From an uncultured delta proteobacterium (GTDB taxonomy: Bacteria; Myxococcota_A; Polyangia; Polyangiales; Houyiibacteriaceae): a stretch of DNA of 64,000 nucleotides. The notes below the pieces were generated by a model that was not told where the DNA came from, ran no database searches, and was given only the letters and a program-made list of their open reading frames with translations. Location: contig CAVOVB010000001.1 of NCBI GenBank assembly GCA_963699755.1, forward strand, positions 1,728,001 to 1,792,000, in the 5' to 3' direction. The position numbers and the translations under genes are program-made. The first letter of the stretch is position 1; each line of letters opens with the position of its first letter. This document shows, one piece after another, positions 1,701-41,879 of the stretch.

Positions 1701-1713
1701 CGCAAAAACTGCG
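1701..1713. promoter_or_regulatory. CGCA-N5-TGCG enhancer-like palindrome
   Basis: CGCAAAAACTGCG; degenerate partner CGCAAGTATTTCC 29 bp downstream (1730). Confidence 0.7.
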
Positions 1714-1785
1714 TATTTGGAACTTTGCCCGCAAGTATTTCCGAACGGCGAAAGACCAACGTGCTCTCGCACGGGGTTTCTGGAG

Positions 1786-1801
1786 TGGCACGCACCTTGC
1801 T
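1786..1801 (+). promoter_or_regulatory. sigma-54 -24/-12 promoter (USP gene)
   Basis: TGGCACGCACCTTGCT, consensus GG-N10-GC. Confidence 0.85.
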
Positions 1802-1820
1802 GGAGGTCTGACTGGGTTCC

Positions 1821-2297
1821 ATGTTTGATATGGCGGCCAACATTCTAGCGGTTACCGATCTGACGTCTGCGAGCTACAAGCTCGTGAGCTTTGCCGCGCT
1901 CATTGCAGGCACGACCGACGGCGAGGTCATCTTGGTTTCAACCTACGGAGGCGGTGGGAGCCGGCGCTCCGAGCCTCCCGCTTCGATGCGGGACAATGCC
2001 GACGGCTGGCGCGACCGGGTCGAGTCCAGGCTTCGCCAGGAGGGACAGCTGCTCGAGCGACAGCGGCAATGGTGCGCTGATCGTGGAGTTCGATGCAGGG
2101 CGGAGCTCTACGAAGAGGGGCACTGGCCGGACTACGTACTGCAGAGCGCCAAGCGTTCCCACGTGGACCTGATTCTGCTTGGCATTCAGCTCAGCGGCGG
2201 TGCCGATCAGCTCAGTCCAATCGACATTCGGAGGCTCGCCGAGGACGCTCCCTGCCCGGTGAGCATGGTCAGGCTCCCAGCGCTTGCCTCCTTTTGA
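1821..2297 (+). CDS. universal stress protein
   Basis: NILAVTDL N-terminal strand, VDLILLG, APCPVSMV C-terminus; start 1821 or 1830. Confidence 0.8.
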   Translation: MFDMAANILAVTDLTSASYKLVSFAALIAGTTDGEVILVSTYGGGGSRRSEPPASMRDNADGWRDRVESRLRQEGQLLERQRQWCADRGVRCRAELYEEGHWPDYVLQSAKRSHVDLILLGIQLSGGADQLSPIDIRRLAEDAPCPVSMVRLPALASF

Positions 2298-2320
2298 TGG
2301 GGGTCGCGGCCTGCCAACGC

Positions 2321-2349
2321 TTGACAGGAGGCTCGCAGTTTCTTAGCCA
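2321..2349 (+). promoter_or_regulatory. putative sigma-70 promoter of the globin kinase (leaderless)
   Basis: TTGACA-17-TAGCCA, ATG 6 nt after the -10, no SD sequence. Confidence 0.5.
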
Positions 2350-2355
2350 AGCCGG

Positions 2356-3537
2356 ATGGTCGACGCCAGCCTGCTCCCCGCTCTCAAGGACTACGTCGGG
2401 TTCGACGCCGAGTGCGCCCGTCGCCTTCAGGCGATGAGCGCTCGGGTGGAGCCGTATCACCGTCCCATCGTCGATCGATTCTACGAGGCCATCCTCGAGG
2501 ACCCGAGCACGCGCGCAGTCCTCAAGAGCGAAGATCAGGTCCAGCGCCTCCGGTCGTCCTTGCTGCACTGGCTCGAAGGACTTTTCACCGGTCCGTACGA
2601 CACCGCGTACTACGAGAAGCGCGCCCAAATCGGACGCGTTCATGTGAAGGTTGGGCTCGAGCAGCGCTACATGCTCGGCGCGATGAACTTGATTCGAATC
2701 GGGCTTCATCGCGCAGTGTCGGATTCCGCTCCCGATGGCCTCGGGATTTTCGAAGATCACAGCGTCATCGATCAGATTTGCGACATCGAGCTCGCGATCA
2801 TGCTCGAGACATACCGAGAAGACTATGTGCTCAAGAAGACCGCCGAAGCGGAGTCGCTCGCGGTCATGGGGAGGCTGACGGCGGGGCTGGCCCACGAGGT
2901 CCGAAATCCTTTGAACGCTGCCAAGCTTCAGCTCGATGTTCTTCGACGCACGGCCTCCCACGTCGAGGACGCTTCGACGCGCCGGAAGATCGAAAGGCGA
3001 ACCAACGTCGTGCAGGACGAGCTCCGACGCTTGTCACTCTTACTCGACGATTTCCTGAATTTGGCGCGTGCGCAGCGGATGGAGCCCATCCGTTGCAATG
3101 CCAGAACGCTGCTCGGCGAAGTGCTCGAGCTGCGAGGTCCCGAGATCGAATCGCAGGGGATTGAGTTCATCGAAGACGTCGATTCGGTTTCCTGCATCCT
3201 GTTCGCAGAGCGCGATCGCCTCAAGCAGGTCGTCAACAACCTGATCACCAATGCAGTCGAGGCGGTGGCCAGCTGCGATCGGCCATCCATTCAGATCGCT
3301 AGCCGGATGCTCGGCGATGACCGGTGGGAGGTCGCGGTGATCGACAACGGTCCAGGGGTTTCGAGCGAGGTCGTCGGGCGGGCGTTCGAATCCTTCGTCA
3401 CGACCAAGGAGGCTGGCACCGGGCTCGGCCTTGCGATCGTCAAGCGAATCGTGGACTTGCACGGAGGCGCAGCGAAGCTCAGCCCAATCGCCGAGGGCGG
3501 CACCTGCGCGTCGTTTTGGATTCCGACAGGGACCTAG
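2356..3537 (+). CDS. globin-coupled (protoglobin-domain) sensor histidine kinase, AfGcHK/NmpU-like
   Basis: globin with FY (B10 Tyr) and IGRVH proximal His; H-box LAHEVRNPL; NLITNA, DNGPG and GTGLGL boxes. Confidence 0.92.
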   Translation: MVDASLLPALKDYVGFDAECARRLQAMSARVEPYHRPIVDRFYEAILEDPSTRAVLKSEDQVQRLRSSLLHWLEGLFTGPYDTAYYEKRAQIGRVHVKVGLEQRYMLGAMNLIRIGLHRAVSDSAPDGLGIFEDHSVIDQICDIELAIMLETYREDYVLKKTAEAESLAVMGRLTAGLAHEVRNPLNAAKLQLDVLRRTASHVEDASTRRKIERRTNVVQDELRRLSLLLDDFLNLARAQRMEPIRCNARTLLGEVLELRGPEIESQGIEFIEDVDSVSCILFAERDRLKQVVNNLITNAVEAVASCDRPSIQIASRMLGDDRWEVAVIDNGPGVSSEVVGRAFESFVTTKEAGTGLGLAIVKRIVDLHGGAAKLSPIAEGGTCASFWIPTGT

Positions 3538-4961
3538 TCCATGATTGGATTCTGGTAGCCCCATTCCTTGACTCGGTATTGGATCTTCCGCTGGCTGATC
3601 CCGAGGATCTCCGCTGCGCGAGCGGTGGAACCATCGACTGCATCGAGAGTCCGTAGGATCGCGACCCGTTCGAGCTCGGACATCGTGATGCCTGGAATCA
3701 GCGCCATCACCGAACCGTTTTGCAGGTCCCCGTGAGCGGAGGTGGGCAAGTCGTCGCGTTGGATCAGCTCGTTTTCGCACATGACGACGGCTCTTTCGAT
3801 CGCGTTCTCCAGCTCTCGAACGTTGCCGGGCCAGGGATAGATCATCAGGTGCTGCAATGCCTCTTCGGAGAGACCTTGCACCGGGCGGTCGTTCTCCCCT
3901 GCGTACTTGCGCAGAAACGCATGGGCTAGCAAGGGGATGTCGCTTCGGCGAACGCGGAGTGGCGGCACGTCGAGCTGGACTACCTTGAGCCTGTAGTAGA
4001 GGTCTTCGCGGAATCGTCCTTCGTCTACCCGATGCTTCAAGTTGCGATTGGTTGCGGCCACGACCCGGACATCGACCTTGAGCGTTTCATTGCCTCCGAC
4101 CCGCTCGAGCTCGCGCTCTTGAAGGAAGCGCAGGAGCTTGATTTGAACGCTCGCCGGGATTTCGCTCACCTCGTCGAGAAAGAGCGTGCCGCCATCGGCC
4201 TGCTTGAACCGCCCTTCACGCCGGGTCATCGCGCCCGTGAAAGAGCCGCGTTCGTGGCCAAAGAGCTCGGACTCGAGCAGAGTTTCGCTCAGGGACGCGC
4301 AGTTGAGCTTGATGAAGGGCTTGTCTTTGCGCTTCGAGTTCTGGTGGATTGCCGCGGCGATCAGCTCCTTGCCTGTCCCGGTTTCGCCGTGGATCAGTAC
4401 GGTCGCGCGGCTCCGAGCGACCTGCGCGATGTTTTTCATCAGCCGCTGCATCGAGGGGTGCTCGCCCAGGATGTTGCCGAGTTGAAAGCGATCGTCGAAT
4501 CGTTCGCGGAGCTGCGCAGCTTCCCGCGAGAGACGGGTTCGATCGAGTGCGCGGTCGACGATCGCCATCACTGCATCGAGCTCGAGGGGCTTGGTGAGAT
4601 AGCTTTCGGCGCCGAGCTTGATCGCTTTGACGGCGGTGTCGATGGTTGCGAACGCCGTCATCACGATGAACGTGGTATGGGGCGACATCGGTCGTCCGCG
4701 TTCGATCAGCGACAATCCGTCCATCCCCGGCATCTTGAGGTCCGTCAAGACGACATCGGGGTCGACCTGCTCCAATTGCAGGAGCGCCGTACGGCCGTCA
4801 GCAGCGGTGCTGACGGAATAGCCGGCGTCGTCCATGAGCTCGGCGAGCGCATTTCGCGCGTTCGCTTCGTCGTCGACGATTAACACGCGACCTTTGGAGA
4901 TTGCGACGTTTGGACGTCTGGCGGTGTCGGAGAAGTCGGATGCGGTGTTTACACTAGTCAT
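3534..4961 (-). CDS. sigma-54-dependent NtrC-family response regulator (NmpR-like)
   Basis: receiver (IVDD, TDLKMP), Walker A GETGTGKE, GSFTGA loop, FLDEV, WPGNVRELEN, C-terminal Fis HTH. Confidence 0.95.
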   Translation of the reverse strand: MTSVNTASDFSDTARRPNVAISKGRVLIVDDEANARNALAELMDDAGYSVSTAADGRTALLQLEQVDPDVVLTDLKMPGMDGLSLIERGRPMSPHTTFIVMTAFATIDTAVKAIKLGAESYLTKPLELDAVMAIVDRALDRTRLSREAAQLRERFDDRFQLGNILGEHPSMQRLMKNIAQVARSRATVLIHGETGTGKELIAAAIHQNSKRKDKPFIKLNCASLSETLLESELFGHERGSFTGAMTRREGRFKQADGGTLFLDEVSEIPASVQIKLLRFLQERELERVGGNETLKVDVRVVAATNRNLKHRVDEGRFREDLYYRLKVVQLDVPPLRVRRSDIPLLAHAFLRKYAGENDRPVQGLSEEALQHLMIYPWPGNVRELENAIERAVVMCENELIQRDDLPTSAHGDLQNGSVMALIPGITMSELERVAILRTLDAVDGSTARAAEILGISQRKIQYRVKEWGYQNPIMD

Positions 4962-4974: not shown

Positions 4975-4990
4975 TGCAGTTGCTGTGCCA
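4975..4990 (-). promoter_or_regulatory. sigma-54 promoter of the response regulator
   Basis: minus strand TGGCACAGCAACTGCA. Confidence 0.75.
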
Positions 4991-5009: not shown

Positions 5010-6437
5010 CTAGGCGTGGGCGGTCGCGTCTTCGCTTCCCGAGAGTCTTGCCGCGCGGCCGGCGGCGAGCTGTGTGTACTCCGCGAACGAAGCTTCCAGA
5101 TCCTCGACGAACTCGTGGACGTCCGGAAAAGACTCCCAGTCTGCGTTCAGACCAAAGTGAAGTCCACCGGCGTAACTGAACAAAGCGATGCCGAGATTCT
5201 GGTTCTGCATCAACGGCACCATCGGATAGATCGACTTCATGGGAGAGCTGAGCAAGTAGAGGGGGAACGGCGGCCCGGGCACGTTGGTGATGATCAAGTT
5301 GTAGGTGCGCAGCTTCATCGCCATCAAGTAGAGCTCTGAGACGATCCGTTTGGTCGTGAGGTCTGCGACTTCTTCGATCAGCGCAGCTCCACCCGTTTGG
5401 TTCGACTCCTTCTTCAGCTCGGTCGTCACATGAATGACCTTCCGGAGTCGTTCGATGGGATCTGGTTCGGACACGGGCAGGTCTGCGAGTAGGAGGGCCA
5501 CCTGATTGCCGACGGTCGACCCTCCAGCTTTGCGAATGTTCACCGGCAGAGCGGTGCGAAACCCTTCCATCGAATCGACGTCCGAGCCCCTCCGCAACAG
5601 GAAGCGACGTACTGCGCCGGTCACCGTGGCGACGACCGCGTCGTTGATCGTTCCACCCAAGGTGTTCTTGACCGCCTTGACGTCGTCGAGGGCGAATCGC
5701 ACCCAGTCGAATCGGCGGTAGGGGCTGATATCCTGCTCCGTAAAAATCGTCCTTGGCGCTGGCTTCATGCCGGAGCGAAGCAAGCTCGATAGGCCCTGGA
5801 AGTTCTGCCGAACCCGCGGCAAGAAGTGGCTGAGCTTGCGAAGGCCGTCGATGCGGTGGTTGGTTTCACCGACGAGAAGCTGTGTTCGGCTGGGGGCCGG
5901 GCGCGGCTTCCATTCCTCTGGTTCGCGTTCCGGAGCGTCTGGGCTGACCGTCAACAAGGCTTGCAGCAGCTCAACGCCTGCGATGCCGTCGACCATGCAG
6001 TGGTGCACTTTGATAATCAGGGCAAAGCGGTCGTTCTCGACACCCTCGACCACCCAAAACTCCCAGAGTGGCCGGCTCCGATCGAGATGCTGCGAGAAGA
6101 GCCGACCCACCAGCCGTTTGAGCGAACGCTCATCGCCGGGCAGAGGCAGGCGCGTGTGGCGCAGATGAAAGTGCATGTTGAAACGGTCGTCATCGACCCA
6201 AACCGGGTGTCCATATCCCGGGATCCACTCCACTCTCTGTCGGTAACGGGGAATCGAGTCTACCGCCGCCTTGGTGTATCGGGTGAGGCGTTCGATATCG
6301 AGGCCTCCGTGCTCGAGCGTGAGAGGCTTCGCGTCAAAAATCAGAGCGGCGCCGACATGCATCGGAGCGGACTTGCTCTCGACGTCGAGAAACGTCGCGT
6401 CCAGAGCGCTCAAACGCTCGTAGAATGTTTCCGGCAT
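5010..6437 (-). CDS. wax ester synthase/diacylglycerol acyltransferase (WS/DGAT)
   Basis: RLSALDATFL start, catalytic HHCMVDG, NLIITNVPGP. Confidence 0.93.
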   Translation of the reverse strand: MPETFYERLSALDATFLDVESKSAPMHVGAALIFDAKPLTLEHGGLDIERLTRYTKAAVDSIPRYRQRVEWIPGYGHPVWVDDDRFNMHFHLRHTRLPLPGDERSLKRLVGRLFSQHLDRSRPLWEFWVVEGVENDRFALIIKVHHCMVDGIAGVELLQALLTVSPDAPEREPEEWKPRPAPSRTQLLVGETNHRIDGLRKLSHFLPRVRQNFQGLSSLLRSGMKPAPRTIFTEQDISPYRRFDWVRFALDDVKAVKNTLGGTINDAVVATVTGAVRRFLLRRGSDVDSMEGFRTALPVNIRKAGGSTVGNQVALLLADLPVSEPDPIERLRKVIHVTTELKKESNQTGGAALIEEVADLTTKRIVSELYLMAMKLRTYNLIITNVPGPPFPLYLLSSPMKSIYPMVPLMQNQNLGIALFSYAGGLHFGLNADWESFPDVHEFVEDLEASFAEYTQLAAGRAARLSGSEDATAHA

Positions 6438-6452: not shown

Positions 6453-6468
6453 AGCAAGATGTGAGCCC
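6453..6468 (-). promoter_or_regulatory. sigma-54 promoter of WS/DGAT
   Basis: minus strand GGGCTCACATCTTGCT (GG-N10-GC). Confidence 0.6.
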
Positions 6469-6516
6469 ACGCATCTGGGAGCCAATAACCCAATACGTGG
6501 GCGTCAGAGGCCTTTG

Positions 6517-6564
6517 GGAAACGCATATTATGCGTTTCCGGTCTGGGCAAGCGCAAAATATGCA
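6517..6564. promoter_or_regulatory. tandem CGCA-N5-TGCG enhancer pair
   Basis: perfect 23-bp palindrome GGAAACGCATA-T-TATGCGTTTCC (core 6522-6534) plus CGCAAAATATGCA at 6552. Confidence 0.75.
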
Positions 6565-6588
6565 GCCGCTGGCTGCTGGGGTTGACCA

Positions 6589-6604
6589 TGGCACAGAACA
6601 TGCT
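6589..6604 (+). promoter_or_regulatory. sigma-54 promoter of CBS gene
   Basis: TGGCACAGAACATGCT. Confidence 0.75.
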
Positions 6605-6617: not shown

Positions 6618-7049
6618 ATGACGCAGCTCTTGGTCCGAGATCTCATGACGCAGCCGGCGAAGACCGTTGGTCCGACGAGCCCGCTTCGGGAGGTCATTCA
6701 GCTGATGGAGGCGAGCCATATCCGCCACGTGGCTGTCGTGGAGGACACTGGGCGCCTGCTGGGGCTCATTTCGCACCGCGATGTCTTACGCAGCCAGGAA
6801 GGAAGTTTGTCTGGCGCCTTGTCGACCGAGCAGGCCCACATGAACCGATGGATCGAAGCCCGATGGGTCATGACGAAAGACGTGCGCACGGTGCATCCCG
6901 AGACGCCTGCCTTGGAAGCTGCACAGATCCTCCGGTCGCACGCCTACGGTTGTGTCCCCGTGGTCGAGGATGGGCGTCTCATAGGCATGTTAACCGACTC
7001 GGATTTCGTCGAATACGCGATTCAGACGCTCTCCGATCCCGGTCTGTGA
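6618..7049 (+). CDS. CBS-pair domain protein
   Basis: VRDLMT...IRHVAVV...GLISHRD and VMTKDV...GCVPVV...GMLTDSD; start moved to 6618, downstream of the promoter. Confidence 0.88.
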   Translation: MTQLLVRDLMTQPAKTVGPTSPLREVIQLMEASHIRHVAVVEDTGRLLGLISHRDVLRSQEGSLSGALSTEQAHMNRWIEARWVMTKDVRTVHPETPALEAAQILRSHAYGCVPVVEDGRLIGMLTDSDFVEYAIQTLSDPGL

Positions 7050-7089
7050 ACGGGCGGACGGCCAACCACCAGATCGTCCCGCACCAACC

Positions 7090-7105
7090 TGGCACGTTGC
7101 TTGCT
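7090..7105 (+). promoter_or_regulatory. sigma-54 promoter of tandem USP gene
   Basis: TGGCACGTTGCTTGCT. Confidence 0.85.
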
Positions 7106-7118
7106 CTACGTTGGACCC

Positions 7119-8027
7119 ATGGCCATCAAGACGATCGTTGTGGGGACAGACCTCGGAGAGTCTGGCCATCGCGCGATGCGGCTCGCGATTGCAACGGCTA
7201 GGGCGACCAACGCTACCCTTTGGCTCGTGCATGCGAGCGAGATGGGCTTGGAGCATCCATGGTCCGACCTTCCCGTCGGGGCGAGGTCGGCCGCTCAAGC
7301 GCTTCGCGAGCGATTGAAGGGCCGCTTCGAGAACTCGCTTCAAGAGCTCGAACGCGAACGCAAGGCATGCGAAGACCTAGGCTTGAGTTGCCAAACGTCC
7401 TGTGAAGAAGGGCGTCCCTGGGAAACGATCCTGCGCACCGCCGTTTCGGTCAATGCCGACCTGATCGCCGTGGGTGATCCCGTCGGAGCCATCGGCCTCC
7501 CGGAGCGCTTGCTTGGCTCGACGGCGGAACGCGTCGTCCGGCAAGCCCCGTGCTCGGTGCTGGTTTCATGTGGCCGCCTTCGCGCGGACTACAGCGGGGC
7601 GCGTATCGCCGTGGGTGTCGATTTCTCTCCGCACGGGGTCGAGGCCGTTCGCTGGGCGCGCGACGTGGCCAACGCGATCGAAGGCGAGGTGTCGCTGCTC
7701 CATGTCGTACCGCACCCGATCACCGAAAGTAGGATGCCGACGGAGTGGCCAAGTGTGCTCGAAGGCCTCGCGTCCATGGCACGCTCGCGGCTCGAGCAAC
7801 TCGTCCTGACCGAAGGTCTGAAACCGAGTACGACCATACAGGTATTAGACGGATCGATAGGAAAGACGATCTGCAATGCGGCGGCGAGCATCAACGCAGA
7901 CCTGGTGTTTGTCGGCTGTAGGGGGCAGGGCAGGCTCCGCGGCATGATGCTTGGCAGTGCCTCGCAGTACTGCCTTCGCTATTCACCGGTTCCGGTTCTC
8001 ACAGTTCGTCCGGGACTTCAGCGCTAG
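7119..8027 (+). CDS. tandem-domain universal stress protein
   Basis: IVVGTD...LLGSTAERVVRQAPCSVLV and IAVGVDFS...LGSASQYCLRYSPVPVL. Confidence 0.92.
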   Translation: MAIKTIVVGTDLGESGHRAMRLAIATARATNATLWLVHASEMGLEHPWSDLPVGARSAAQALRERLKGRFENSLQELERERKACEDLGLSCQTSCEEGRPWETILRTAVSVNADLIAVGDPVGAIGLPERLLGSTAERVVRQAPCSVLVSCGRLRADYSGARIAVGVDFSPHGVEAVRWARDVANAIEGEVSLLHVVPHPITESRMPTEWPSVLEGLASMARSRLEQLVLTEGLKPSTTIQVLDGSIGKTICNAAASINADLVFVGCRGQGRLRGMMLGSASQYCLRYSPVPVLTVRPGLQR

Positions 8028-9567
8028 CCCTTCAATGTTGCTTCGAGCAGGCTCCGGATCTCGTCCAACGGCCGGGACGTATCCAACCGGAGATGCTCGG
8101 ACGCCCGAAGCTCGTCGATCGGATCGAAGTGCGTTTCGAACTCCTCCAACAGTTCGGTTCGCGCGTCACTCTCATGTGGTCCCCCTCGTTCGCGCGCGGC
8201 CAGGCGGTCCAAGATCAGCGCTCGGGGTGCACTGCACTCGACCAGGATGAATGGGACTCCGTGCTGGTTCGCCAAGCGGTAGGCTGCATCCCGCATCGCC
8301 GCTGTGCGAAAAGAAGCGTCGATCACGACTGGACGTCCGGACGCGAGCACGATGTCGGCAAGCCGAAAAAGCTCCCCGTAGACGTCTTTGGTCGCGCTTG
8401 GCGAGTAAGCTCCGGACCAAGCTTTACCCGCGAGGGATTCGGTCGGCTCGGTGGCTCATGAGCTGCTTGCGCGTCCGGTCGGAGCCGAGCACCGGAGCGG
8501 CGAGCAAGTCGCCGATCGTCGCCGAGGTCTGGCTCTTCCCGGCGGCGATCATCCCTCCGACCGCGACGACCCGCGGTGGCACGAGCGGTGGGCGCTCGAA
8601 CGCCAAAGCTAAAACGAAGTAACGCCTGGCCTCTCGCCGCGCCCGCTCCCTTGCCTCAGGGGATGCCTCGGTGTCCGAGGCTAGCAGTGATGCAACCTTG
8701 CCGCGCACGTATGCGCGGTAGCTCTCGTAGAAATTGACCACCGAATAGAGCTCATAGTCGTTCGATTCGCGGGCGTACCGCGCGAGAAACCGTTCGGCGA
8801 GGTCCACCCGCCCGTGCCAGGCGAGGTCCATCGACAGGAACGCGATGTCCGCGCAGACATCTCCGTATCGGAAGCGGTCGTTGAACTCGATGCAGTCGAT
8901 GATCGAAATCGAGACGTCGGACTCGAAGTACACGTGCTCGAGCCTCAAGTCACCGTGTCCGTCACGGACACGCGCGGCCGCAATTCTCGCCATGAAAGGA
9001 GCATCGTTCCGGAGTGTCCGCACTTGCCAAGACTCGACCTCGAGAGCCTGGTCCGGCGTCAAGATAGTCCCCGATCGAGGCCCGTGTTTGTTCGAAGTTC
9101 TCCTCCACGTTTTTTCGGATCGTCTCGATTCGACCGTGCTCGGACGTTTCCGCGTCGCAGCGTACGCCTTCGTGGAATCGCGCGATGTGAGCCGCGAGCG
9201 CGTCGATGTGTTTCGGCATCAACAAGCCGGCTCGCAGGAGCGCGTCTGCACGCCGTTCAACTGCGAGACGACGCATTCGAACCGCCCAGTCCACGGCCGC
9301 GCCAGCTCCTGCGATCCGGTGAACGCCGGAAGCGTCGATCGTGATGGGCACGACATCGAGGTAGACGTCCGGTGCGAGCCGCCGGTTGAGCTGCAGCTCT
9401 GCGTCGCACGCGGCTCGGCGCTTCTCGAGCGTCGTGAAGTCGAGGAAGCCCAAGTCGACGGGTCGTTTGACCTTGAACACCTCGTCCGCACCCAAGAAGA
9501 TCCAAGAGATATGCGTCTCGACCAGCTCGAAGCCGCTTGCCTCGAGATCCGCTTTCAGCTTTCCCAT
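8024..9567 (-). CDS. aminoglycoside phosphotransferase-like / AAA_33 P-loop kinase fusion (Rv2004c-like), two +1 frameshifts
   Basis: ETHISW, HGDLRLEH, IDCIEFN, GGMIAAGKS, VVIDASF across ORFs 8962-9621, 8424-9062, 8024-8350; removing one base near 9061 and one near 8454 gives 513 aa. Confidence 0.85.
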
Positions 9568-9640: not shown

Positions 9641-9682
9641 CGCAATTCTATCGCCAGGTCCGCAATTCGCGCATCATTTGCG
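9641..9682. promoter_or_regulatory. CGCA-N5-TGCG enhancer pair
   Basis: CGCATCATTTGCG at 9670 and degenerate CGCAATTCTATCG at 9641 (29 bp apart). Confidence 0.65.
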
Positions 9683-9722
9683 TCACTCGTCTGGAATGGC
9701 AGCCAAAGCAGGAGACTCCACT

Positions 9723-9738
9723 GGGCACGGGGTTTGCT
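9723..9738 (+). promoter_or_regulatory. sigma-54 promoter of DUF5335 operon
   Basis: GGGCACGGGGTTTGCT. Confidence 0.8.
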
Positions 9739-9769
9739 TCCTCTGAAGCATCAGCACTGGAGGCAAGCG

Positions 9770-10105
9770 ATGACGACACGGAAGTTAGAGAGCCCGGAGT
9801 GGCAACGGTACTTCGACGAGGTTTCAAAGCACCTCCCCACGATGCGGGTAGGCATTTCGGTCATGGGTGAGAAAATCGGCGTGCAGCCCGAGAGCGAAGG
9901 CAGCGTGTTGGTCGGAGTCAGTTACGACCCGAACGACGACGTTTTCTCGGTCGATGCGGTGAATATTTCGCACCGAGTGCCCAAGCCGAAGGAAATCTTC
10001 GTTCGCGAACAGGCTGGAAGGCTTTCGAGCATCGAGGTCATTGCGCAGGACGGGACGAAGCAAATTATCGAGCTCCGGCCGCTCCCCTCGTTGCCTGCTT
10101 CCTAA
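9770..10105 (+). CDS. DUF5335-family protein
   Basis: WQRYFDEVSK...GVSYDPNDD...HRVPKP...DGTKQII pattern; GGAGG SD before ATG 9770. Confidence 0.75.
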   Translation: MTTRKLESPEWQRYFDEVSKHLPTMRVGISVMGEKIGVQPESEGSVLVGVSYDPNDDVFSVDAVNISHRVPKPKEIFVREQAGRLSSIEVIAQDGTKQIIELRPLPSLPAS

Positions 10106-10128
10106 CTTGCGACTACGGAGGTCTGAAT

Positions 10129-10578
10129 ATGGGACAGACATGGATCTTGGTGGCACACGAAGCCGGCGCGCGACTGTTCGCGAACGACGGGATCGGAAAT
10201 GGCTTGGCACTCGTCGAATCGATCGACCACCCCGAAGGCCGGGCGCGCGACCGGGACATCGACTCCGATCGTCCCGGCCGCTCGTTTCACAAGAACAGCG
10301 GTGACCCCCGGCGCGCTTCGATGGGACAAAGCGAGAGTCCGCACGATAGGGTGGTTTCCGACTTCTCGAGAGAGCTGGCCGACAAGCTCCGGCACGCCCG
10401 TGTCCAAAATCAGTTCGATCGCCTGGTTCTCGTCGCGCCTCCGAGATTTCTGGGATTGCTACGATCCGCGCTCGATGGACCGACTTCGCAGCTGGTGATC
10501 GGCTCCATTCACAAAGACCTCGCGACCAGCAACGAGGCCGAGCTGATCCAACACCTCGGTGAAGTGATCGTCATTTGA
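10129..10578 (+). CDS. host attachment protein family (baeRF-related fold)
   Basis: TWILVA...ARLF, SDRPGR, LVLVAPPRFLGLLR, IHKDL motifs. Confidence 0.85.
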   Translation: MGQTWILVAHEAGARLFANDGIGNGLALVESIDHPEGRARDRDIDSDRPGRSFHKNSGDPRRASMGQSESPHDRVVSDFSRELADKLRHARVQNQFDRLVLVAPPRFLGLLRSALDGPTSQLVIGSIHKDLATSNEAELIQHLGEVIVI

Positions 10579-33302: not shown

Positions 33303-33383
33303 ACGCTCGCTCTAGGGTCGATCCTTGAAGGGGTCACGCTACAACTCGCCTGTCGCCATGCGGGGGTCACTTATAGCCGAATC

Positions 33384-33450
33384 CGCGGATATTGCGCGCC
33401 GTTCGTTCGGGCACCGAGGAAATACGATGGATCGTGGGTCAGCGGGTGCT
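33384..33450 (+). promoter_or_regulatory. one-mismatch enhancer plus degenerate sigma-54 promoter of ywiC-like gene
   Basis: CGCGGATATTGCG (33384-33396); TGGGTCAGCGGGTGCT (33435-33450). Confidence 0.5.
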
Positions 33451-33463: not shown

Positions 33464-34315
33464 ATGGGCTCCGCACAACGCAAGATGGTCCCAAGAGAGC
33501 ACGGCGCCTACGCGGAGCTGCTGTTCCCGATCGTCTCCGTTCTTCTGGGTGGAGCCCCCACGACCTCGACCTGGCTCCTCGCGATTGGCGCGATTGGTGC
33601 GTTCCTCGCAAACGAGCCTCTCCTGGTCCTGTTCGGGCAGCGGGGCACCCGCATGCAGCGCGAAGAGAGCGACCGCGCCAAACGGGCCTTACTGATTTTC
33701 TCGCTGCTGGCGCTCGGCGCGGGCATCACGGGACTCGTGCTCGCGTCGACACAGGTCCAATACGCCATCCTCGTGCCTCTCTTGCTTGGTGTCACCCTCG
33801 TGCTTCTGGCCATCCAGGGGCTCGAGCGCAGCATGTTTGGAGAAGCCTTGGCAGCGGTCACGCTTTCCTCGATTGCGATACCCCTGGGCCTTTCCGCGGG
33901 CTTGGGGCGCACCGCGACGATCTCCGTTGCGCTGCTCTGGCTCACGGCCTCCCTGTTGGGGACCGCCGCGGTGCGGCTGACCGTCGCACGCACAAAGGCC
34001 AAGACCGACGAAGACCGTCGGCGCGTGGCTTTCAAGCGGTTCGTCCTGATTTTGGTCTGCGCTGTGGCCATCGTCGTTGGGGTGATGGGGCTCAGCGGGA
34101 CCCGGGCTGGGCTCTCGATTCTCGCGGCGGCGATGCCCGTGGCGCTCGTCGTCCTAGTGGTGGCTGCCCTTCGGCCGACCGCTCGCCGGCTTCGTCTCAT
34201 GGGCTGGAGCCTCGTCGCCGCAAATCTTTGTTCGTTGATAGCGGTGGTCACCACGCTAAAGATCCTTCAGGATTTCAATGCGGTCGAACCGACCCTACCG
34301 TTCCCCATGTTCTAG
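33464..34315 (+). CDS. YwiC-like membrane protein
   Basis: PREHGAYA N-terminal motif, many TM helices. Confidence 0.8.
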   Translation: MGSAQRKMVPREHGAYAELLFPIVSVLLGGAPTTSTWLLAIGAIGAFLANEPLLVLFGQRGTRMQREESDRAKRALLIFSLLALGAGITGLVLASTQVQYAILVPLLLGVTLVLLAIQGLERSMFGEALAAVTLSSIAIPLGLSAGLGRTATISVALLWLTASLLGTAAVRLTVARTKAKTDEDRRRVAFKRFVLILVCAVAIVVGVMGLSGTRAGLSILAAAMPVALVVLVVAALRPTARRLRLMGWSLVAANLCSLIAVVTTLKILQDFNAVEPTLPFPMF

Positions 34316-34348
34316 CTCGGTCGCGGACGACCCTGAGAGGAGAAGCTT

Positions 34349-34765
34349 GTGCTCGTAAAAGACATCATGACCGAAAACCCCGCGACGGCGACGGAGCTCA
34401 TGTCGGTCGCCGAAGCGCTGGGGTTGCTCTATGAGCTCGATGTCCGGCACCTTCCGGTGGTCCGGGGGCGCGAGCTCGTCGGCATCATCAGCGACCGGGA
34501 CCTTCGAAGTTTTTCTGGCGCCCCGGACGACGAAGCGATGGAGGCTGTCGAGGGCGCGCGTTCGGCGAACGTCGGCAACTTCATGAACACCAGCACCGTC
34601 AAGGTCGATCCCGAGACCAACGTTCGTGAAGTGTTGGAGCTGATGCTCTTACATCGCGTGGGCGCGATTCCGGTGGCCGATCTCGACACTGGCGACCTGC
34701 TCGGAATCGTGAGCTACATCGACCTGTTGCGTGTGCTCCAGGAGACCTTGGACCCCGGCGCGTGA
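34349..34765 (+). CDS. CBS-pair domain protein
   Basis: VKDIMT, VRHLPVV, GIISDRD, GIVSYID. Confidence 0.9.
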   Translation: MLVKDIMTENPATATELMSVAEALGLLYELDVRHLPVVRGRELVGIISDRDLRSFSGAPDDEAMEAVEGARSANVGNFMNTSTVKVDPETNVREVLELMLLHRVGAIPVADLDTGDLLGIVSYIDLLRVLQETLDPGA

Positions 34766-35347: not shown

Positions 35348-35360
35348 CGCATGTTTTGCG
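35348..35360. promoter_or_regulatory. CGCA-N5-TGCG palindrome upstream of nqrA
   Basis: CGCATGTTTTGCG. Confidence 0.6.
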
Positions 35361-35413
35361 CCTCGTTTCGCACTTCACGCACCGGGATTCTGGGCTAGAC
35401 TCCGCCCACTCGA

Positions 35414-36763
35414 ATGCACGTTCGCATCCGCAGAGGCCTAAACATCCCCATTTTGGGAACACCCGAGCAACGCATCGAAGATGCAAACGCGGTCGGCTGG
35501 GTTGCGTTGGTCGCCATGGACTTCGTCGGCCTGCAGCCTCGACTAAAGGTGGATGTCGGTGACCGCGTCCGCCTTGGGCAACCCTTGCTCATCGACAAGA
35601 ACAACCCGGAAGTGATGTTCACCTCGCCCGGCTGCGGGGAAATCGTTGCGATCCATCGCGGAGCTCGGAGGTCACTTCAATCGGTCGTCGTTCGCTTGGA
35701 AGGCGACGAAGCAGAGGTTTTCCCCTCGCATGAGCGCTCCATGCTCAGCCAGATCGATCGCAACGCGGTGCGAGCAGTCCTGCAGTCGTCCGGCCTCTGG
35801 ACCGCGTTGCGCACGCGGCCGTTTGGAAAGGTTCCCAGCGCGCACGCGTCACCGCATTCGATCTTCGTCACGGCCGTCGACACGAACCCGCTCGCCGGCG
35901 ACCCACGTCTGGTCATCGCAGAGCGCGCTCAGGAGTTTCACGATGGCGTGGCCGTGCTCAGCCGGCTCACCGACGGCAAGGTCCACGTTTGTCACGCGCC
36001 AGGGCACGGCTTCGAGCTTCCGAACCTCGAATCGGTGAGCTTGGCGACGTTCGAGGGCCCGCACCCCGCCGGCCTGCCCGGGACCCATATCCATTTCCTC
36101 GATCCCGTGAGCGAGAACAAGAGCGTTTGGTACCTCGGCTACCAAGACGTGATCGCGATTGGCTCGCTATTCACCACGGGCCGACTCCGCACCGAGCGCG
36201 TGATCGCGTTGGGGGGGCCTTTGGTGAAGAGGCCACGTCTGCTGCGCACACGCATGGGCGCAAGCACCGAGGATCTCTTGAACGGAGAGATCGACGCGGG
36301 CGAATGCCGCGTGATCTCGGGTTCGATTCTGGGTGGACGACGAGCAGCGGGGCACGCACGGTATCTCGGCCCGTATGACGTGCAGCTGAGCGTGCTCGCT
36401 GAGGACCGAACCCGTCGCTTCCTCGGCTGGATCGCGCCCGGTTCCGATCGATACTCCGCGATCCGCGCCTTCGTCGCCTCGCTGCGTCCTCAGCGCTACC
36501 GCTTTCCGCTCAGCACCAGTCAGAACGGCAGCCCCCGTGCGATGATTCCCATTGGCAACTTCGAGAAAGTCATGCCGCTCGATATTCTGCCCGCGCCGTT
36601 GTTGAAGGCGCTCATCGTCGAAGATACGGAAACCGCCAAAGCGCTCGGCTGCCTCGAGCTCGAAGAAGAAGACCTCGCGCTCTGCTCGTTCGTCTGCTGC
36701 AGCAAGTACGAGTACGGCGAGTTTCTTCGAGCAAACCTAAACCTGATCGAGAAGAACGGCTGA
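35414..36763 (+). CDS. nqrA: Na+-NQR subunit A
   Basis: IRRGLNIPI, GPHPAG, LGCLELEEEDLALCSFVC. Confidence 0.95.
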   Translation: MHVRIRRGLNIPILGTPEQRIEDANAVGWVALVAMDFVGLQPRLKVDVGDRVRLGQPLLIDKNNPEVMFTSPGCGEIVAIHRGARRSLQSVVVRLEGDEAEVFPSHERSMLSQIDRNAVRAVLQSSGLWTALRTRPFGKVPSAHASPHSIFVTAVDTNPLAGDPRLVIAERAQEFHDGVAVLSRLTDGKVHVCHAPGHGFELPNLESVSLATFEGPHPAGLPGTHIHFLDPVSENKSVWYLGYQDVIAIGSLFTTGRLRTERVIALGGPLVKRPRLLRTRMGASTEDLLNGEIDAGECRVISGSILGGRRAAGHARYLGPYDVQLSVLAEDRTRRFLGWIAPGSDRYSAIRAFVASLRPQRYRFPLSTSQNGSPRAMIPIGNFEKVMPLDILPAPLLKALIVEDTETAKALGCLELEEEDLALCSFVCCSKYEYGEFLRANLNLIEKNG

Positions 36764-37977
36764 TGCGCCCACTGCGAAAGCTCCTCGACAAAGTCGAGCC
36801 CCACTTTGAAAAGGGCGGGCGCCTCGAGAGCTTTCAGGCGATCTACGAGATGCTCGACACACTCTTCTACTCGCCTCCGGACGTGTCGCGCCATGCACCG
36901 CACGTGCGCGACGCGATCGATCTCAAGCGTGTCATGGGCCTGGTCGTCGTCGGGGTTTTGCCCTGCGCGCTTTTCGGCATGTGGAACACGGGCCACCAGG
37001 CCAACCTCGCGATCGAGCAGCTCGGCTTGCCCGCGCCGAGCGACTGGCGAGGCGCTCTGATGGCCGCGATCGGAATCGGACACGACCCGCAGAGCGTCAG
37101 CGCCGCGACCTTCTATGGGCTGCTCTACTTCGTTCCGATCTACGCCGTCACCTTGGCGGCGGGCGGCGTATGGGAAGTCCTTTTCGCCGGCATTCGCAAC
37201 CACGAGGTCAACGAAGGGTTTTTCGTGACTTCGATTCTCTACGCCCTGACCCTGCCCGCTACGACTCCCCTGTGGCAGGTGGCCATTGGAATTTCGTTTG
37301 GCGTCGTCATGGCGAAGGAGGTCTTTGGCGGGACGGGCAAGAACTTCATGAACCCTGCGCTCGCCGGCCGGGCGTTCCTCTACTTCGCGTACCCCGTCGA
37401 GATGTCCGGCGAGTCGGTCTGGACACCCCCGATCGACGTGATCACCGGCGCGACGCCACTCGCAATCGGCGCCGAGAGCGGCATCGCAGGCATCGTCGAT
37501 CAGGGCGTCACGTGGATGGATGCGTTTGTCGGAAGCATCCAGGGCTCGCTTGGCGAGACTTCAGCCCTCGCGTGCCTCCTCGGCGGCGTCTTCATCGTGT
37601 ACACCGGGGTGGCCTCATGGCGGATCATCGCGGGAGTCATGTTGGGCATGTTTGCCACGGCCATGCTCTTCAACGCGGTCGGCTCCGACTCGAATCCGAT
37701 GTTCGCCATGCCCTGGTACTGGCATCTCGTCCTCGGCGGCTTCGCGTTCGGAATGGTGTTCATGGCGACCGACCCGGTCAGCGCCTGCGTCACCAACCCC
37801 GGCCGCTGGGTCTTCGGGGTTCTGATCGGAGCGATCACCGTCGTCATTCGCGTGGTCAACATCGCGTTCCCGGAGGGAATCATGCTTGCGATCCTCTTCG
37901 CCAACGTCTTTGCGCCCACCATCGACCACTTCGTCGTGCGGGCCAACGTCACCAGGAGGTTGCGCCGAAGTGCCTGA
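36763..37977 (+). CDS. nqrB: Na+-NQR subunit B
   Basis: HVRDAIDLKR, KEVFGGTGKNFMNPAL, TGAT FMN site, FMATDPVS. Confidence 0.95.
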   Translation: MRPLRKLLDKVEPHFEKGGRLESFQAIYEMLDTLFYSPPDVSRHAPHVRDAIDLKRVMGLVVVGVLPCALFGMWNTGHQANLAIEQLGLPAPSDWRGALMAAIGIGHDPQSVSAATFYGLLYFVPIYAVTLAAGGVWEVLFAGIRNHEVNEGFFVTSILYALTLPATTPLWQVAIGISFGVVMAKEVFGGTGKNFMNPALAGRAFLYFAYPVEMSGESVWTPPIDVITGATPLAIGAESGIAGIVDQGVTWMDAFVGSIQGSLGETSALACLLGGVFIVYTGVASWRIIAGVMLGMFATAMLFNAVGSDSNPMFAMPWYWHLVLGGFAFGMVFMATDPVSACVTNPGRWVFGVLIGAITVVIRVVNIAFPEGIMLAILFANVFAPTIDHFVVRANVTRRLRRSA

Positions 37978-38770
37978 TCCTTCCCAAGCATCCGGCGCCA
38001 AGACGGACACGGTCGCTCGGACCCTGCTCGTCGCGCTTTTCGTCAGCCTGCTTTGCTCGTCTCTGGTGGCCTCGGCCGCCATCCTGCTCAAGCCGCGACA
38101 GGTCGAGAACGCGATGGTCGAGATGCGACGAAACATCCTCGAGGTGGCAGGGCTCTGGGCTCCGGAGGCCGAGGTCGACGAGCTTTTCGAGAGCATCGAG
38201 CCACGTGTCATCGACCTCGAAACCGGCGCCTACGCCGACGACATCATTGCGAACGACTACGATCCGGTGGAGGCCGCAAAGGATCCCGCCCAGAGCGTCG
38301 AGATCCCCAGCGAGTTCGACGTGGCCAAGGTGGGGCGCCGCGCCAAGCATGCGCTTGTGTATCTCGTTCGCCGCGACGGCGAGATCAGCAGGATCATCCT
38401 CCCGATTTCGGGCTACGGGCTCTGGTCGACTCTCTATGGCTTTCTCGCTCTCGAGGCCGATGGCAACACCGTTTCGGACATCGCGTTTTATGCGCATGGA
38501 GAGACCCCGGGCCTTGGCGACTTCATCGTCAAGCCCGCGTGGCGTGAGCTCTGGCACGGCAAGCGGGCGTTCGATGATTCCGGTGCGCTCGCGCTTCGTG
38601 TCGTCAAGGGGCGCGTCTCTGCCGACGACCCGCTCGCCGACTACCACGTCGATGGGGTCTCCGGCGCGACGCTCACGGGGAACGGCGTCTCGAACATCAT
38701 CAAGTACTGGCTCGGCGATCACGGCTATGGACCATTCCTCGAGCAGATCCAGGCAGGAGAAAGCCCATGA
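37970..38770 (+). CDS. nqrC: Na+-NQR subunit C
   Basis: [26 protein letters not shown] start at 37970. Confidence 0.93.
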
Positions 38771-39429
38771 GCACCGCAACCAAGCGCGCTCTTCTGAAAC
38801 CCATCATTGATGACAACCCCGTCACCTTGCACGTGCTCGGCATCTGCTCGGCGCTCGCCGTGACCACGTCGCTCCTGCCGTCCCTCTACATGTGCGTTGC
38901 CCTCACGGTGGTTGCCGCCTTGTCGAACGCGGCGGTCAGTGCGATTCGCCACATTCTTCCGAGCAGCATCCGCATCATCGTGCAGATGACGATCATCGCA
39001 TCGCTGGTGATCGTCGTCGACGAGTCCTTGAAGGCGTTTGCGTTCGAGACGAGCCGGGAGCTTTCGGTCTTCGTGGGCCTGATCATCACGAACTGCATCG
39101 TCCTCGGCCGTACCGAGAGCTTCGCTTCGAAGAACCCGGTCGGCTTGAGCTTCCTCGACGGCATCGGGAACGGCCTCGGCTACAGCACGATTCTGATCCT
39201 CGTGGCGACGAGCCGCGAGCTCCTCGGCGCGGGGACGCTTCTCGGCTACACGATCTTCCCGAACGCGGCCGATGGCGGCTGGTACAAGCCCAACGGCATG
39301 ATGCTCCTGCCTCCGAGCGCGTTCTTCGTGATCGGCCTGATCATCTGGGCTGTCCGGACTTGGAAGGCCGAGCAGGTCGAGAAGCCCGAGTTCCGGATTC
39401 ACGAAGTGCATCGAACGGAGGCCTTGTGA
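38767..39429 (+). CDS. nqrD: Na+-NQR subunit D
   Basis: [22 protein letters not shown]. Confidence 0.95.
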
Positions 39430-40037
39430 TGGTCAGCTACGTCGAACTATTCATCAAGGCCGTCTTCGTCGAGAACCTCGCGCTTTCGTTCTTCCTCGGA
39501 ATGTGCACGTTCCTCGCGGTCTCCAAGCGGATCGAAACCGCGTTCGGCCTCGGGGCGGCGGTGGTCGGGGTGCAGCTCATCACCGTTCCGGCAAACACGT
39601 TCCTTTACAACTATGTCCTCAAAGAGGGCGCGCTCGCATGGGCGGGGCTCCCGGACATCGACCTGAGCTTCCTCGGCCTGGTCACCTATATCGGCGTCAT
39701 CGCCGCGATGGTGCAAATCCTCGAGATGGTGCTCGACAAGTATTTTCCGAGGCTCTTCCATGCGCTCGGCATCTACCTGCCTTTGATCACGGTGAACTGC
39801 GCGATCCTCGGCGGCAGCCTGTTTTCAGTGAGTCGTGACTACACGATGGGCGAGAGCGTCGTGTACGGAGTTGGGAGCGGATTTGGCTGGGCCTTGGCTC
39901 TGGTCGCGCTTGCGGGCATTCGGGAAAAGCTCAAGTACAGCGACGTGCCCGCGGGCCTCCAAGGCCTCGGGATCACCTTCATCATCGTCGGTCTGATGTC
40001 TTTGGGCTTCATGGCCTTTGCAGGGATTCAACTCTAG
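39429..40037 (+). CDS. nqrE: Na+-NQR subunit E
   Basis: [25 protein letters not shown]. Confidence 0.95.
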
Positions 40038-40049
40038 GAGGACAGGAGC

Positions 40050-41276
40050 GTGGCACTGCAAATCGTTCTGGCCGTCGCCGTCTTCACGGGCATCGTCGTC
40101 TCTCTGTCGGCGCTGATTTTAGCCGCGCGCTCGAAGCTCGTCGAAACCGGCGGCGTCCACATGCTGGTCAACGGCGACAAGGACTTCGAGGTATCCGCGG
40201 GCGCAAAGCTCTTGGTTGCCTTGGCGAAGACCGGCCTCTACCTGCCCGCAGGCTGCGGCGGCAAAGGGACTTGCGGTCAGTGCAGGGTGAAGGTTCTCCA
40301 TGGGGGAGGTCCGTTGCTTCCCACCGAAGAGTCGATGGTCTCACGCAATGAGGCGTCGCAGCACGTCCGGCTCGCCTGTCAGGTTTCGGTTCGAGAAGAC
40401 ATCCGCGTGGAAATCCCCGAGGAGGTCTTTGGTGTTCGGAAGTGGGAGTGCGAAGTGCGATCGACCCACGGCCTCAGCACCTTCATCAAAGAGATTTGCC
40501 TGGAGCTTCCGGCCGGCGAAGAGGTGCCGTTTCGGGCGGGCGGCTACATCCAGGTCGAGTGCCCGCCGTACGAGGCGAAGTTCTCCGATTTCGACATCGA
40601 GGGGGCGTACCGTGACACCTGGGATGAGTATAAGCTCTGGCGGTTCGAAGCGGGCTGCAAGGCCGAGACAACCCGCGCCTACTCGATGGCCAACTACCCG
40701 GAGGAAACCGGAATTATCCTCCTCAACATCGGCATCGCCCTGCCACCGCCGGGCGCGGGGCCGAATGTGCGGCCGGGCATCGTCTCGTCTTATCTGTTCA
40801 GCCTGAAGCCTGGAGACAAAGTCACGATCGCCGGACCCTACGGAGAGTTCTTCGCGAGGGAAACCGAAAACGAGATGGTGTTCATTGGGGGAGGCACGGG
40901 CATGGCGCCACTTCGGTCGCACATCTTCGATCAGCTCAAGCGCCTCAACACCCAGCGCAAGATTTCGTTCTGGTTCGGCGTTCGAAGCAAGCGCGACCTT
41001 TTCTATCACGAAGCGTTCCAGCGCCTGGCCGACGAGCACCCAAACTTCACCTACGTGGCGGCTCTTTCGGAGCCGAGAGACGACGACGGCTGGGAGGGCC
41101 CGACAGGCTTCATTCACCAGGTGGCGTACGACATGCACCTTCGTGATCACAAAGCCCCCGAGGACTGCGAATATTACATGTGCGGTCCACCCTTGATGAT
41201 CTCTGCGGTTCAAGCGATGCTCAGGGATCTCGGTGTTCCCGAGGAAAGCGTCATGTTCGACGATTTTGGGAGTTGA
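40050..41276 (+). CDS. nqrF: Na+-NQR subunit F
   Basis: CGGKGTCGQC...RLACQ, RAYSMAN, YYMCGPP, FDDFG. Confidence 0.95.
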   Translation: MALQIVLAVAVFTGIVVSLSALILAARSKLVETGGVHMLVNGDKDFEVSAGAKLLVALAKTGLYLPAGCGGKGTCGQCRVKVLHGGGPLLPTEESMVSRNEASQHVRLACQVSVREDIRVEIPEEVFGVRKWECEVRSTHGLSTFIKEICLELPAGEEVPFRAGGYIQVECPPYEAKFSDFDIEGAYRDTWDEYKLWRFEAGCKAETTRAYSMANYPEETGIILLNIGIALPPPGAGPNVRPGIVSSYLFSLKPGDKVTIAGPYGEFFARETENEMVFIGGGTGMAPLRSHIFDQLKRLNTQRKISFWFGVRSKRDLFYHEAFQRLADEHPNFTYVAALSEPRDDDGWEGPTGFIHQVAYDMHLRDHKAPEDCEYYMCGPPLMISAVQAMLRDLGVPEESVMFDDFGS

Positions 41277-41280
41277 AGGG

Positions 41281-41463
41281 ATGACCTATGTGCTCAGCTT
41301 CTTCGTGTTCGCGCTGGCCCTGAGCGGCTTGAGCGCCGGGCTGCTCCTCGGCAGGGGCGGGATTCGCGGCACATGTGGCGGGCTCAACAACCCCGACGGA
41401 ACGGGATGCGGGGCCTGCGGCCGAGCTGCAAGCGGTGACTGTCCGAGGAAACGAGACGCATGA
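41281..41463 (+). CDS. nqrM: Na+-NQR maturation factor NqrM
   Basis: single TM then IRGTCGGL...CGAC...C. Confidence 0.8.
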   Translation: MTYVLSFFVFALALSGLSAGLLLGRGGIRGTCGGLNNPDGTGCGACGRAASGDCPRKRDA

Positions 41464-41879
41464 GCCCGGTCAAAGAAATGCGGGTCCGTGACATCATGGT
41501 CAAAAAGCCCGTGGTCTTCACGAGCGACACCGATCTGCTCGACGCGGTTTCCATCTTGGTCGACAGGCGTATTACAGGAGCCCCTGTGGTCGACGCGCGC
41601 GGAAACCTCATCGGCCTTCTCACCGAGCGTGACTTCTTGAGAGCCGCCCTGGTCGCCGGATATCACGGGGAGCGTGGAGGATGCGTCGGGGACTACATGT
41701 CTCGCGACGTCGAAGCCGTGAACGCGGACGACAGCCTACTCGACATCGCCACGCGCTTCGTCGAAACGAAACGCAGGCGGTACCCGGTCATCGAAGACAA
41801 CCGGGTCGTCGGCGTGGTCGTGAGAAGAGACGTGCTGCGTGCCGTGATCCGCGCCTTTGATCTGCCTCCGTCGCGGTGA
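41460..41879 (+). CDS. CBS-pair domain protein
   Basis: VRDIMV, TGAPVVD, GLLTERD, RYPVI; overlaps nqrM stop. Confidence 0.9.
   Translation: MSPVKEMRVRDIMVKKPVVFTSDTDLLDAVSILVDRRITGAPVVDARGNLIGLLTERDFLRAALVAGYHGERGGCVGDYMSRDVEAVNADDSLLDIATRFVETKRRRYPVIEDNRVVGVVVRRDVLRAVIRAFDLPPSR

Follow-up and report, generated by a model that had tools for sequence, protein, structure and literature searches.

A globin-coupled histidine kinase with a predicted NmpS-type core adjoins an NmpR-type sigma-54 activator in an uncultured myxobacterial genus

In the NmpRSTU system of Myxococcus xanthus, oxygen-bound NmpU transfers phosphate to the NmpS receiver, which keeps NmpS off, with NmpS serving as the inverter and NmpT as a sink (PMC6211767, PMC11841059), and the sigma-54 activator NmpR is phosphorylated by NmpS only, not by NmpU (PMC6211767). 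NmpR recognises the consensus GCGCA-N5-TGCGC, its bound promoters mostly carry sites 14-15 nt apart, and its targets include genes for universal stress proteins (USPs), CBS proteins, hemerythrin, the cbb3 oxidase and the kinase operon, which are NmpR-activated, one having been shown to be induced by hypoxia (PMC11841059). Here we analyse a 64,000-nucleotide stretch of DNA (hereafter the window; C1:1728001-1792000 of the 5.35-Mb bin G000, 62.5% GC, 100% complete and 9% contaminated), in which a globin-coupled histidine kinase and an NmpR-type activator lie within a 40-kb island of predicted target genes. It is the absence of NmpS and NmpT, overlooked in a preliminary description of the island, that makes the locus interesting.

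The window kinase, its predicted partner and its relatives

The kinase (393 aa; 2356..3537, + strand) is almost certainly a chimera, as judged by sequence comparison, in which an NmpU-type globin (residues 1-157) precedes an NmpS-type DHp-CA core, with U-like sequence giving way to S-like at about residues 158-161 (2827-2838). Its landmarks are Tyr43 and His96 in the globin, and His180 and an ExxN motif in the core. The distal Tyr43 and proximal His96 of protoglobins are invariant in 38/38 sequences of the genus, and the window globin, which scores 102 bits against that of AfGcHK, clusters with the NmpU globins of the same lineages (support 93, FastTree). Close relatives of the kinase come from Polyangiales/Myxococcales metagenome bins.

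For the comparison of cores, we used AfGcHK-type loci anchored on protein P0251 (219 bits to the AfGcHK globin), of whose relatives 80 metagenome loci were gathered; the anchored loci score 196-219 bits against the same globin, and those of greater length have their genes arranged as already published, U>T>S><R. Set against the receiver-kinase and the globin kinase of order-level full clusters, the window core scored 203/97, 172/68 and 177/73 bits, respectively, and the window globin matched the globin kinase. At 35/35 loci (the comparison being limited to those with both cores of at least 200 residues), the NmpS core resembled the window core more closely than the NmpU core beside it did, with mean identities of 38.8 vs 31.3%. 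A 47-row IQ-TREE phylogeny placed it among REC-kinase cores, beside the receiver-PAS-kinase of L045, and its grouping with NmpU cores was rejected (approximately unbiased, AU, p=7e-5; p=0.04 on a smaller set). At the DHp positions H+7, H+11 and H+12, which we take from EnvZ work to be specificity sites, 41/41 kinases of the genus carry N/L/Q, as do NmpS-type cores (19/19/18 of 19, and 44/44) and none of the 15 + 79 NmpU-type cores; the signature of the NmpU clade (G/S/A-S/T-S, with a linker of 34) is absent from the window kinase. Two points weigh against assigning the core in this way: orthology to NmpU, NmpS and NmpR was judged on these AfGcHK-type stand-ins and not on the actual M. xanthus proteins, and support for the NmpS-type clade is moderate (81/89 and 94/86).

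The window kinase lacks the N-terminal receiver of NmpS and has the globin in its place. Neither NmpS nor NmpT is encoded in the window, NmpT having been judged from the locus and G000 only, and a full-length NmpS-like query recovered no separate NmpS from the 47 genomes of the genus survey, whose bins are incomplete. In 44/47 of them the best match was the globin kinase core, over query positions 255-490 only, and the 3/47 that gave no match are fragmented and also lack a globin match. The preliminary description had taken the kinase for an NmpU/AfGcHK orthologue, a view contradicted by the NmpS-type core (tree, DHp residues and 35/35 loci) and by the fact that NmpU itself does not phosphorylate NmpR (PMC6211767). 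A literature search for NmpS/NmpU fusions, protoglobin kinase fusions and O2-inhibited globin kinases found no such description, most subscription papers lying outside its coverage.

We also considered that the kinase might be a diverged NmpU that signals, as in the known relay, through an unrecognised intermediate encoded elsewhere in the genome. G000 does hold other receiver-kinase hybrids, and the incompleteness of the bins and the 9% contamination of G000 speak for such an arrangement; however, those hybrids of this genome that the trees contained were placed outside the NmpS clade and, given the NmpS-type DHp signature in every genus kinase and the lack of a full-length NmpS, we regard a hidden intermediate as very improbable.

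Only two protoglobin matches were found in G000, namely the kinase gene and its copy on contig C7. Over 319 kb this contig duplicates C1 at 83% identity, and it has a syntenic second island (C7:215000-285000); its kinase (82% identical) was rejected as a true second copy, since it sits within those 319 kb and the contig is likely that of a congener. Five extra globins from the genus were checked: three have no called kinase, and two (L226:3432-4394 and L227:2620-3609, from two genomes) are second globins followed by a coiled coil without a kinase, with a box just upstream of the L226 gene.

As the preliminary description had it, the kinase gene abuts that of a sigma-54 activator (3534..4961), which lies on the - strand, making the pair convergent. 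The activator comprises a REC domain, an AAA+ domain with GSFTGA and a helix-turn-helix whose recognition helix, ISQRKIQYRVKE, compares with ISVRKIQYRLKE of the NmpR type; the NmpR-type receiver helix 1 is also present, and identity amounts to 54-60%. It forms one clade with activators that stand beside full relays, and in the activators of L160 and L198, two of the AfGcHK-type loci, the numbering of D54, V87 and K104-P105 is as in NmpR. G000 has one copy of rpoN.

A relative from the same family, L073, shows the order U>S><R, from which a single deletion suffices to produce the layout of the window; the chimera may thus have arisen by an in-frame deletion within an nmpU-(nmpT)-nmpS operon. 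A globin joined to an NmpS-type core beside an NmpR-type activator also occurs in other families and in another class, in some cases with a PAS-like middle domain. A single clade of the 19 fused cores was rejected (p=4e-5), the tree requires a minimum of 8 state changes, junction lengths vary, and L051 and L052 share the same gene order with a receiver and a globin, respectively; the globin kinases of L043 and L068 fall outside both clades and were excluded from the fusion count. Together these comparisons indicate that globin-NmpS fusions arose several times independently. On the wider proposition that Myxococcota repeatedly collapsed the NmpRSTU relay into a globin-NmpS chimera, each time retuning the linker so that O2 inhibits, our judgement is evenly poised.

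Further rewirings of the NmpU sensor are found at L066, L067 and L089-L091, where the partners of an NmpU-type globin kinase are another kind of receiver-kinase and another sigma-54 activator (helix GRYALRYR), and at L064/L065, where NmpU is paired with an unrelated receiver-kinase. Proteins P0327 and P0384 also combine a globin with an NmpS-type core, through linkers of 42 and 40; the globin of P0327 is AfGcHK-like, and the source label of P0384 is Planctomycetes.

Linker length and oxygen polarity

Since the NmpU-NmpS step inverts the oxygen signal and the fusion removes the inverter, the window kinase must be O2-inhibited if its regulon is to be on in hypoxia. Counted from the E of ELAIM in the last globin helix up to the phospho-His, the linker has a length of 34 in AfGcHK and all measurable NmpU-type kinases (79/79, 45/45 and 16/16, with 4/20 of the last set unmeasurable) and of 35 in 41/41 kinases of the genus, whereas direct fusions show nine lengths (29, 35, 40, 42, 43, 49, 59, 61 and 62). 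In an AlphaFold model of the kinase, a continuous helix spans residues 132-200, and inverted variants of YF1 lie in register +1 (PMC11164954). We argue for the O2-off sign mainly from the targets, since in M. xanthus NmpR activates the USP, CBS, hemerythrin, cbb3 and kinase operons, and, given the chimera, think this sign fairly probable. Several observations count on the other side. AfGcHK, the characterised relative, is O2-activated (PMC8697598); it is in the linker that the model has low confidence, with a predicted local distance difference test (pLDDT) score <50 at 161-178; and the share of direct-fusion linker lengths in two heptad registers is 5/9 (p=0.08, not significant), which makes the register argument weak, YF1 being a precedent and not proof.

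On balance, we think it probable that the chimera phosphorylates the adjoining NmpR-type activator directly, is inhibited by O2 and so turns island promoters on at low oxygen, a proposal that rests on comparative sequence evidence. The globin would bind haem and O2, as its invariant Tyr43 and His96 suggest; the deoxy form would be kinase-on and the oxy form off or a phosphatase, and the extra residue in the coiled-coil linker would determine the sign. A fall in oxygen would lead the activator to turn on those sigma-54 promoters that bear boxes, its targets being its own operon and the genes for USPs, CBS proteins, the wax ester/triacylglycerol (TAG) synthase WS/DGAT, glycogen enzymes and hemerythrin. 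The cbb3 oxidase is probably a further target, and the Na+-translocating NADH:quinone oxidoreductase (Nqr) probably is not. We counted in favour of this scheme that G000 has a separate, stronger COX1-family match, likely an A-type oxidase.

The same chimera and partner could instead have kept the polarity of AfGcHK, so that O2 turns the kinase on and the regulon, opposite in sense to that of M. xanthus, answers to the arrival of oxygen; storage and stress genes would then be on in oxic spells, and the box heading the cbb3 unit might serve to repress it. Here the region between the dsbD-like gene and ywiC (33370..33450) is relevant, since the conserved box at 33384 has a TATAA 8 bp away on its cbb3 side in 7/7 islands, but a sigma-54-like site in 2/7 islands only, and a TATAA beside the box could mean repression, which also counts against our scheme. 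Linker registers, too, differ among the fusions. Against an O2-activated kinase, the activated classes (USP, CBS, hemerythrin and kinase operon) are the NmpR-on set of M. xanthus, 34 is not among the nine linker lengths of the direct fusions, and a relative with a full relay, L231, has a box pair and a sigma-54 site at the equivalent dsbD-fixI head. We therefore consider O2 activation unlikely. A sigma-70 scan of 33150-35500 found no promoter. The conserved TATAA (33370-33400, dsbD side) and a TATGCT (24500-24520, USP4 side) both lie a few bases past the proximal box and are possible overlapping sigma-70 promoters.

Less likely still than an O2-activated kinase, in our estimate, is a globin that senses redox state, nitric oxide (NO) or carbon monoxide (CO), or that only tunes a mostly constitutive kinase/phosphatase balance, the island then being a general energy-stress regulon. 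AfGcHK is active also as Fe(III) and Fe(II)-CO (PMC8697598), the genome has two shorter COX1-family genes that are likely NO reductases, and a CO dehydrogenase unit stands behind a box pair (L138, below); the distal Tyr, which is the O2-recognition residue of AfGcHK, is nevertheless invariant in the 38/38 genus sequences.

NmpR boxes, island genes and the wider regulon

The preliminary description had listed 11 GG-N10-GC promoters in the island, most with a shared palindrome nearby. Ten of the 11 read as listed, the exception being 24545, which reads GG-N10-GA, and an exact palindrome does lie 30-110 bp upstream of 8/11; the site at 33435 has a box with one mismatch, and those at 4990 and 7090 have no box within 110 bp. 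The palindrome, CGCA-N5-TGCG, matches the published NmpR box. It occurs in 12 exact copies in the 1.5-42 kb region, against 2.3 expected at the genome rate, with a single further copy elsewhere in the window, and 3,210 bp of island intergenic DNA contain 8 copies, as compared with 0.16 per kb genome-wide. Four box pairs in the island have a period of 29-30 bp, as in M. xanthus, and 33/57 of the genome-wide box pairs within 14-60 bp are spaced 28-30 bp apart.

Eight syntenic islands, the window's own included, were compared using a sigma-54 matrix trained on the USP1, USP2, glycogen and USP4 sites. Box and sigma-54 site are conserved together at USP1, WS/DGAT, DUF5335, glycogen, hemerythrin and USP4, and partly at CBS1 (5/8 islands); the sigma-54 sites stand at a fixed distance from the box before hemerythrin (8/8) and DUF5335 (6/6), and that of WS/DGAT is the best match in 6/8 and present in 8/8 by sequence inspection. 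Two listed promoters fared less well: the one at 30284 is not conserved, and that at 33435 scores weakly. Gene order from USP1 to YwiC is conserved in G014, G020, G084, G163, G192 and C7; among variants, cbb3 and Nqr are missing at the locus from G056 and Nqr from G014, and the version in G008 is short.

All the gene classes previously named (USP, CBS, WS/DGAT, DUF5335, glycogen, hemerythrin, cbb3, YwiC and Nqr) are present, as identified by Pfam and NCBIfam profiles. The USP1-kinase unit opens with a box at 1701 and a sigma-54 site at 1786 (1701..1800, +; site in 7/7 scored islands, box ~80 bp upstream in 6/7), followed by USP1 (1821..2297, +). The sigma-54 site before the activator (4976..4990, -) has no box of its own and is conserved in 5/8 islands. 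Next in the window, WS/DGAT (5010..6437, -) and CBS1 with the tandem USP2 (6618..8027, +; likely CBS1 start 6618, USP2 at 7119-8027) flank a divergent control region (6454..6603) with sigma-54 sites at 6468 (-) and 6589 (+) and a box pair at 6522/6552, 30 bp apart; the box-less sigma-54 site at 7090 is conserved, and USP2 has no match in the PDB at 1e-12. A protein with phosphotransferase-like and AAA_33 domains (8024..9567, -) is split into three frames here; it is a single open frame of at least 532 codons in relatives and is whole in L028 (97-99% identical). A box at 9670 and a sigma-54 site at 9723 then precede DUF5335, baeRF12/Host_attach and CBS2 (9670..11388, +).

The glycogen unit (11422..20378, -) encodes a debranching enzyme, GT4, GH57 and a GT3 glycogen synthase/alpha-glucan phosphorylase fusion (11422-15679), the last with one frame break near 14.5 kb where relatives have one frame of 1,422-1,521 codons; the breaks in this and the phosphotransferase-AAA_33 gene are likely assembly indels. 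The unit is headed by a sigma-54 site at 20442 and a box pair at 20504/20534 (20428..20546, -; conserved in 7/8 islands). Beyond lie hemerythrin, USP3, a 278-aa protein, a 101-aa protein and an acetyl-CoA hydrolase/transferase (20555..24376, -). The 278-aa protein (22136-22972) has no Pfam match, two CxxCH motifs and a lipoprotein-like start, and is conserved in the hemerythrin unit. A second divergent control region (24414..24559), with sigma-54 sites at 24428 (-) and 24545 (+) and a box pair at 24460/24489, 29 bp apart, separates this unit from two single-domain USPs (24577..25470, +). The cbb3 unit (25481..33239, -) encodes a DsbD-like protein, FixI ATPase, FixS, fused CcoNO, a CcoQ-like protein, CcoP and FixG; a box pair within the FixI coding region (30338..30380) is conserved in 6/7 islands, its neighbouring site at 30284 being the non-conserved one. 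A YwiC-like protein and CBS3 follow (33464..34765, +).

Adjacent to these are a box at 35348, nqrABCDEF and CBS4 (35348..41879, +). The suggestion that Na+-NQR belongs to the regulon is unsupported: nqrA lacks a sigma-54-like site in 6/6 islands, where a conserved TAGACT/TAAGCT hexamer takes its place, and has a box in 4/6 only. Just past the island (41931-47005), two LuxR-type regulators flank short-chain dehydrogenases and a sulfotransferase. Elsewhere in G000, L125:3393-5543 holds a 717-aa open frame that matches the thiol-activated cytolysin family.

The idea of a regulon confined to the island fails, in that 44 combinations of box and sigma-54 site were counted genome-wide (~6 expected, with a sigma-54 pattern tuned on the window sites), of which 8 lie in the window, 8 on C7 and 28 elsewhere. 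The densest cluster of this NmpR-type regulon does lie in the window, and we read the island as the hub of the regulon and not its entirety. The proposed reach into carbon storage stands as well, the wax/TAG and glycogen units having conserved boxes and sigma-54 sites; the M. xanthus NmpR regulon as described lacks both (PMC11841059). Across 74 genes scanned near off-island sites, the one clear link to redox metabolism was a CO dehydrogenase unit, which speaks against our low-oxygen scheme, and the off-island sites were rejected as an oxygen regulon, most of these genes having no link to oxygen. Two runs of RNA data contained 5-7% of the words, and contigs from four runs gave short, mostly divergent pieces.

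The CO dehydrogenase unit (L138:3876-8640, on C10 of G000) comprises an iron-sulfur protein, a CO dehydrogenase/prismane-family enzyme, a CooC-like ATPase and an oxidoreductase behind a 29-bp box pair, with no sigma-54 site called. Off-island 28-bp box pairs (C2:367651, C2:844-858 kb, C3:3138 and C10:18239) share a TTTGGGGCGTGGGGG-like spacer and are mostly followed by a sigma-54 site; occurring ~7 times in G000 and repeatedly among congeners, they resemble a dispersed, duplicated enhancer cassette. A stand-alone paralogue of the activator (C1:648357-649748; 54% identity) resembles it in the recognition helix, carries Glu where the phospho-Asp would apparently lie, and could read off-island boxes.

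Comparison with known systems

AfGcHK is O2-on and needs a second kinase as inverter, and a 393-residue chimera that drops the inverter would thus offer a one-protein test of sensor polarity and of phosphorelay shrinkage, a question of polarity so far addressed mainly with engineered light sensors. An O2-off outcome would define a new sensor class, and an O2-on outcome would reverse the meaning of the regulon. If Myxococcota did collapse the relay repeatedly and retune the linker each time, the resulting proteins would be the first globin-coupled histidine kinases known to be inhibited by O2, and would form a natural series in which a signalling cascade loses a step while keeping its sign. The locus is likely to act as the master switch for low oxygen in a widespread genus of uncultured myxobacteria, one to which the storage of lipid and glycogen is attached.

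The window kinase shares with AfGcHK (Anaeromyxobacter sp. Fw109-5, PDB 5OHE, PMC8697598) the soluble globin-HisKA-HATPase layout, distal Tyr and proximal His, but differs in its NmpS-lineage core, its linker (35 vs 34), a sigma-54 activator as predicted partner and a predicted opposite O2 polarity. The haem kinases FixL and DosS/DosT have the deoxy-on logic predicted here (PMC8697598, PMC11203133), and the DosR-linked tgs1 and USPs parallel the island's WS/DGAT and USPs (PMC11203133, PMC11841059). Unlike FixL, DosS and DosT, the window kinase uses a globin and not a PAS/GAF haem domain, with output through a sigma-54 activator. The haem domain of DosS and DosT is a GAF domain, and the DosR regulon presumably also holds CBS and phosphotransferase-AAA analogues, in Rv2626c and Rv2004c by their domain make-up. 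Engineered YF1 variants likewise place a sensor on a foreign kinase core via a coiled coil, the sign of the response depending in some cases on its length (PMC11164954); the window kinase, in contrast, is natural, haem-based and repeatedly evolved, with a sign that is predicted.

With NmpRSTU, finally, the locus shares an NmpR-type activator, boxes with a 29-30 bp period, sigma-54 promoters, USP, CBS, hemerythrin and cbb3 genes, and a boxed kinase-operon promoter (PMC6211767, PMC11841059); control of these gene classes and of the kinase operon by NmpR is already known in M. xanthus. Here, however, two proteins replace four, the NmpU core, NmpT and the NmpS receiver being gone and the inverter with them, WS/DGAT and glycogen units are added, and many targets lie within one 40-kb island. 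What is new relative to NmpRSTU is the fused, repeatedly evolved and probably sign-inverted kinase, rather than the clustering.

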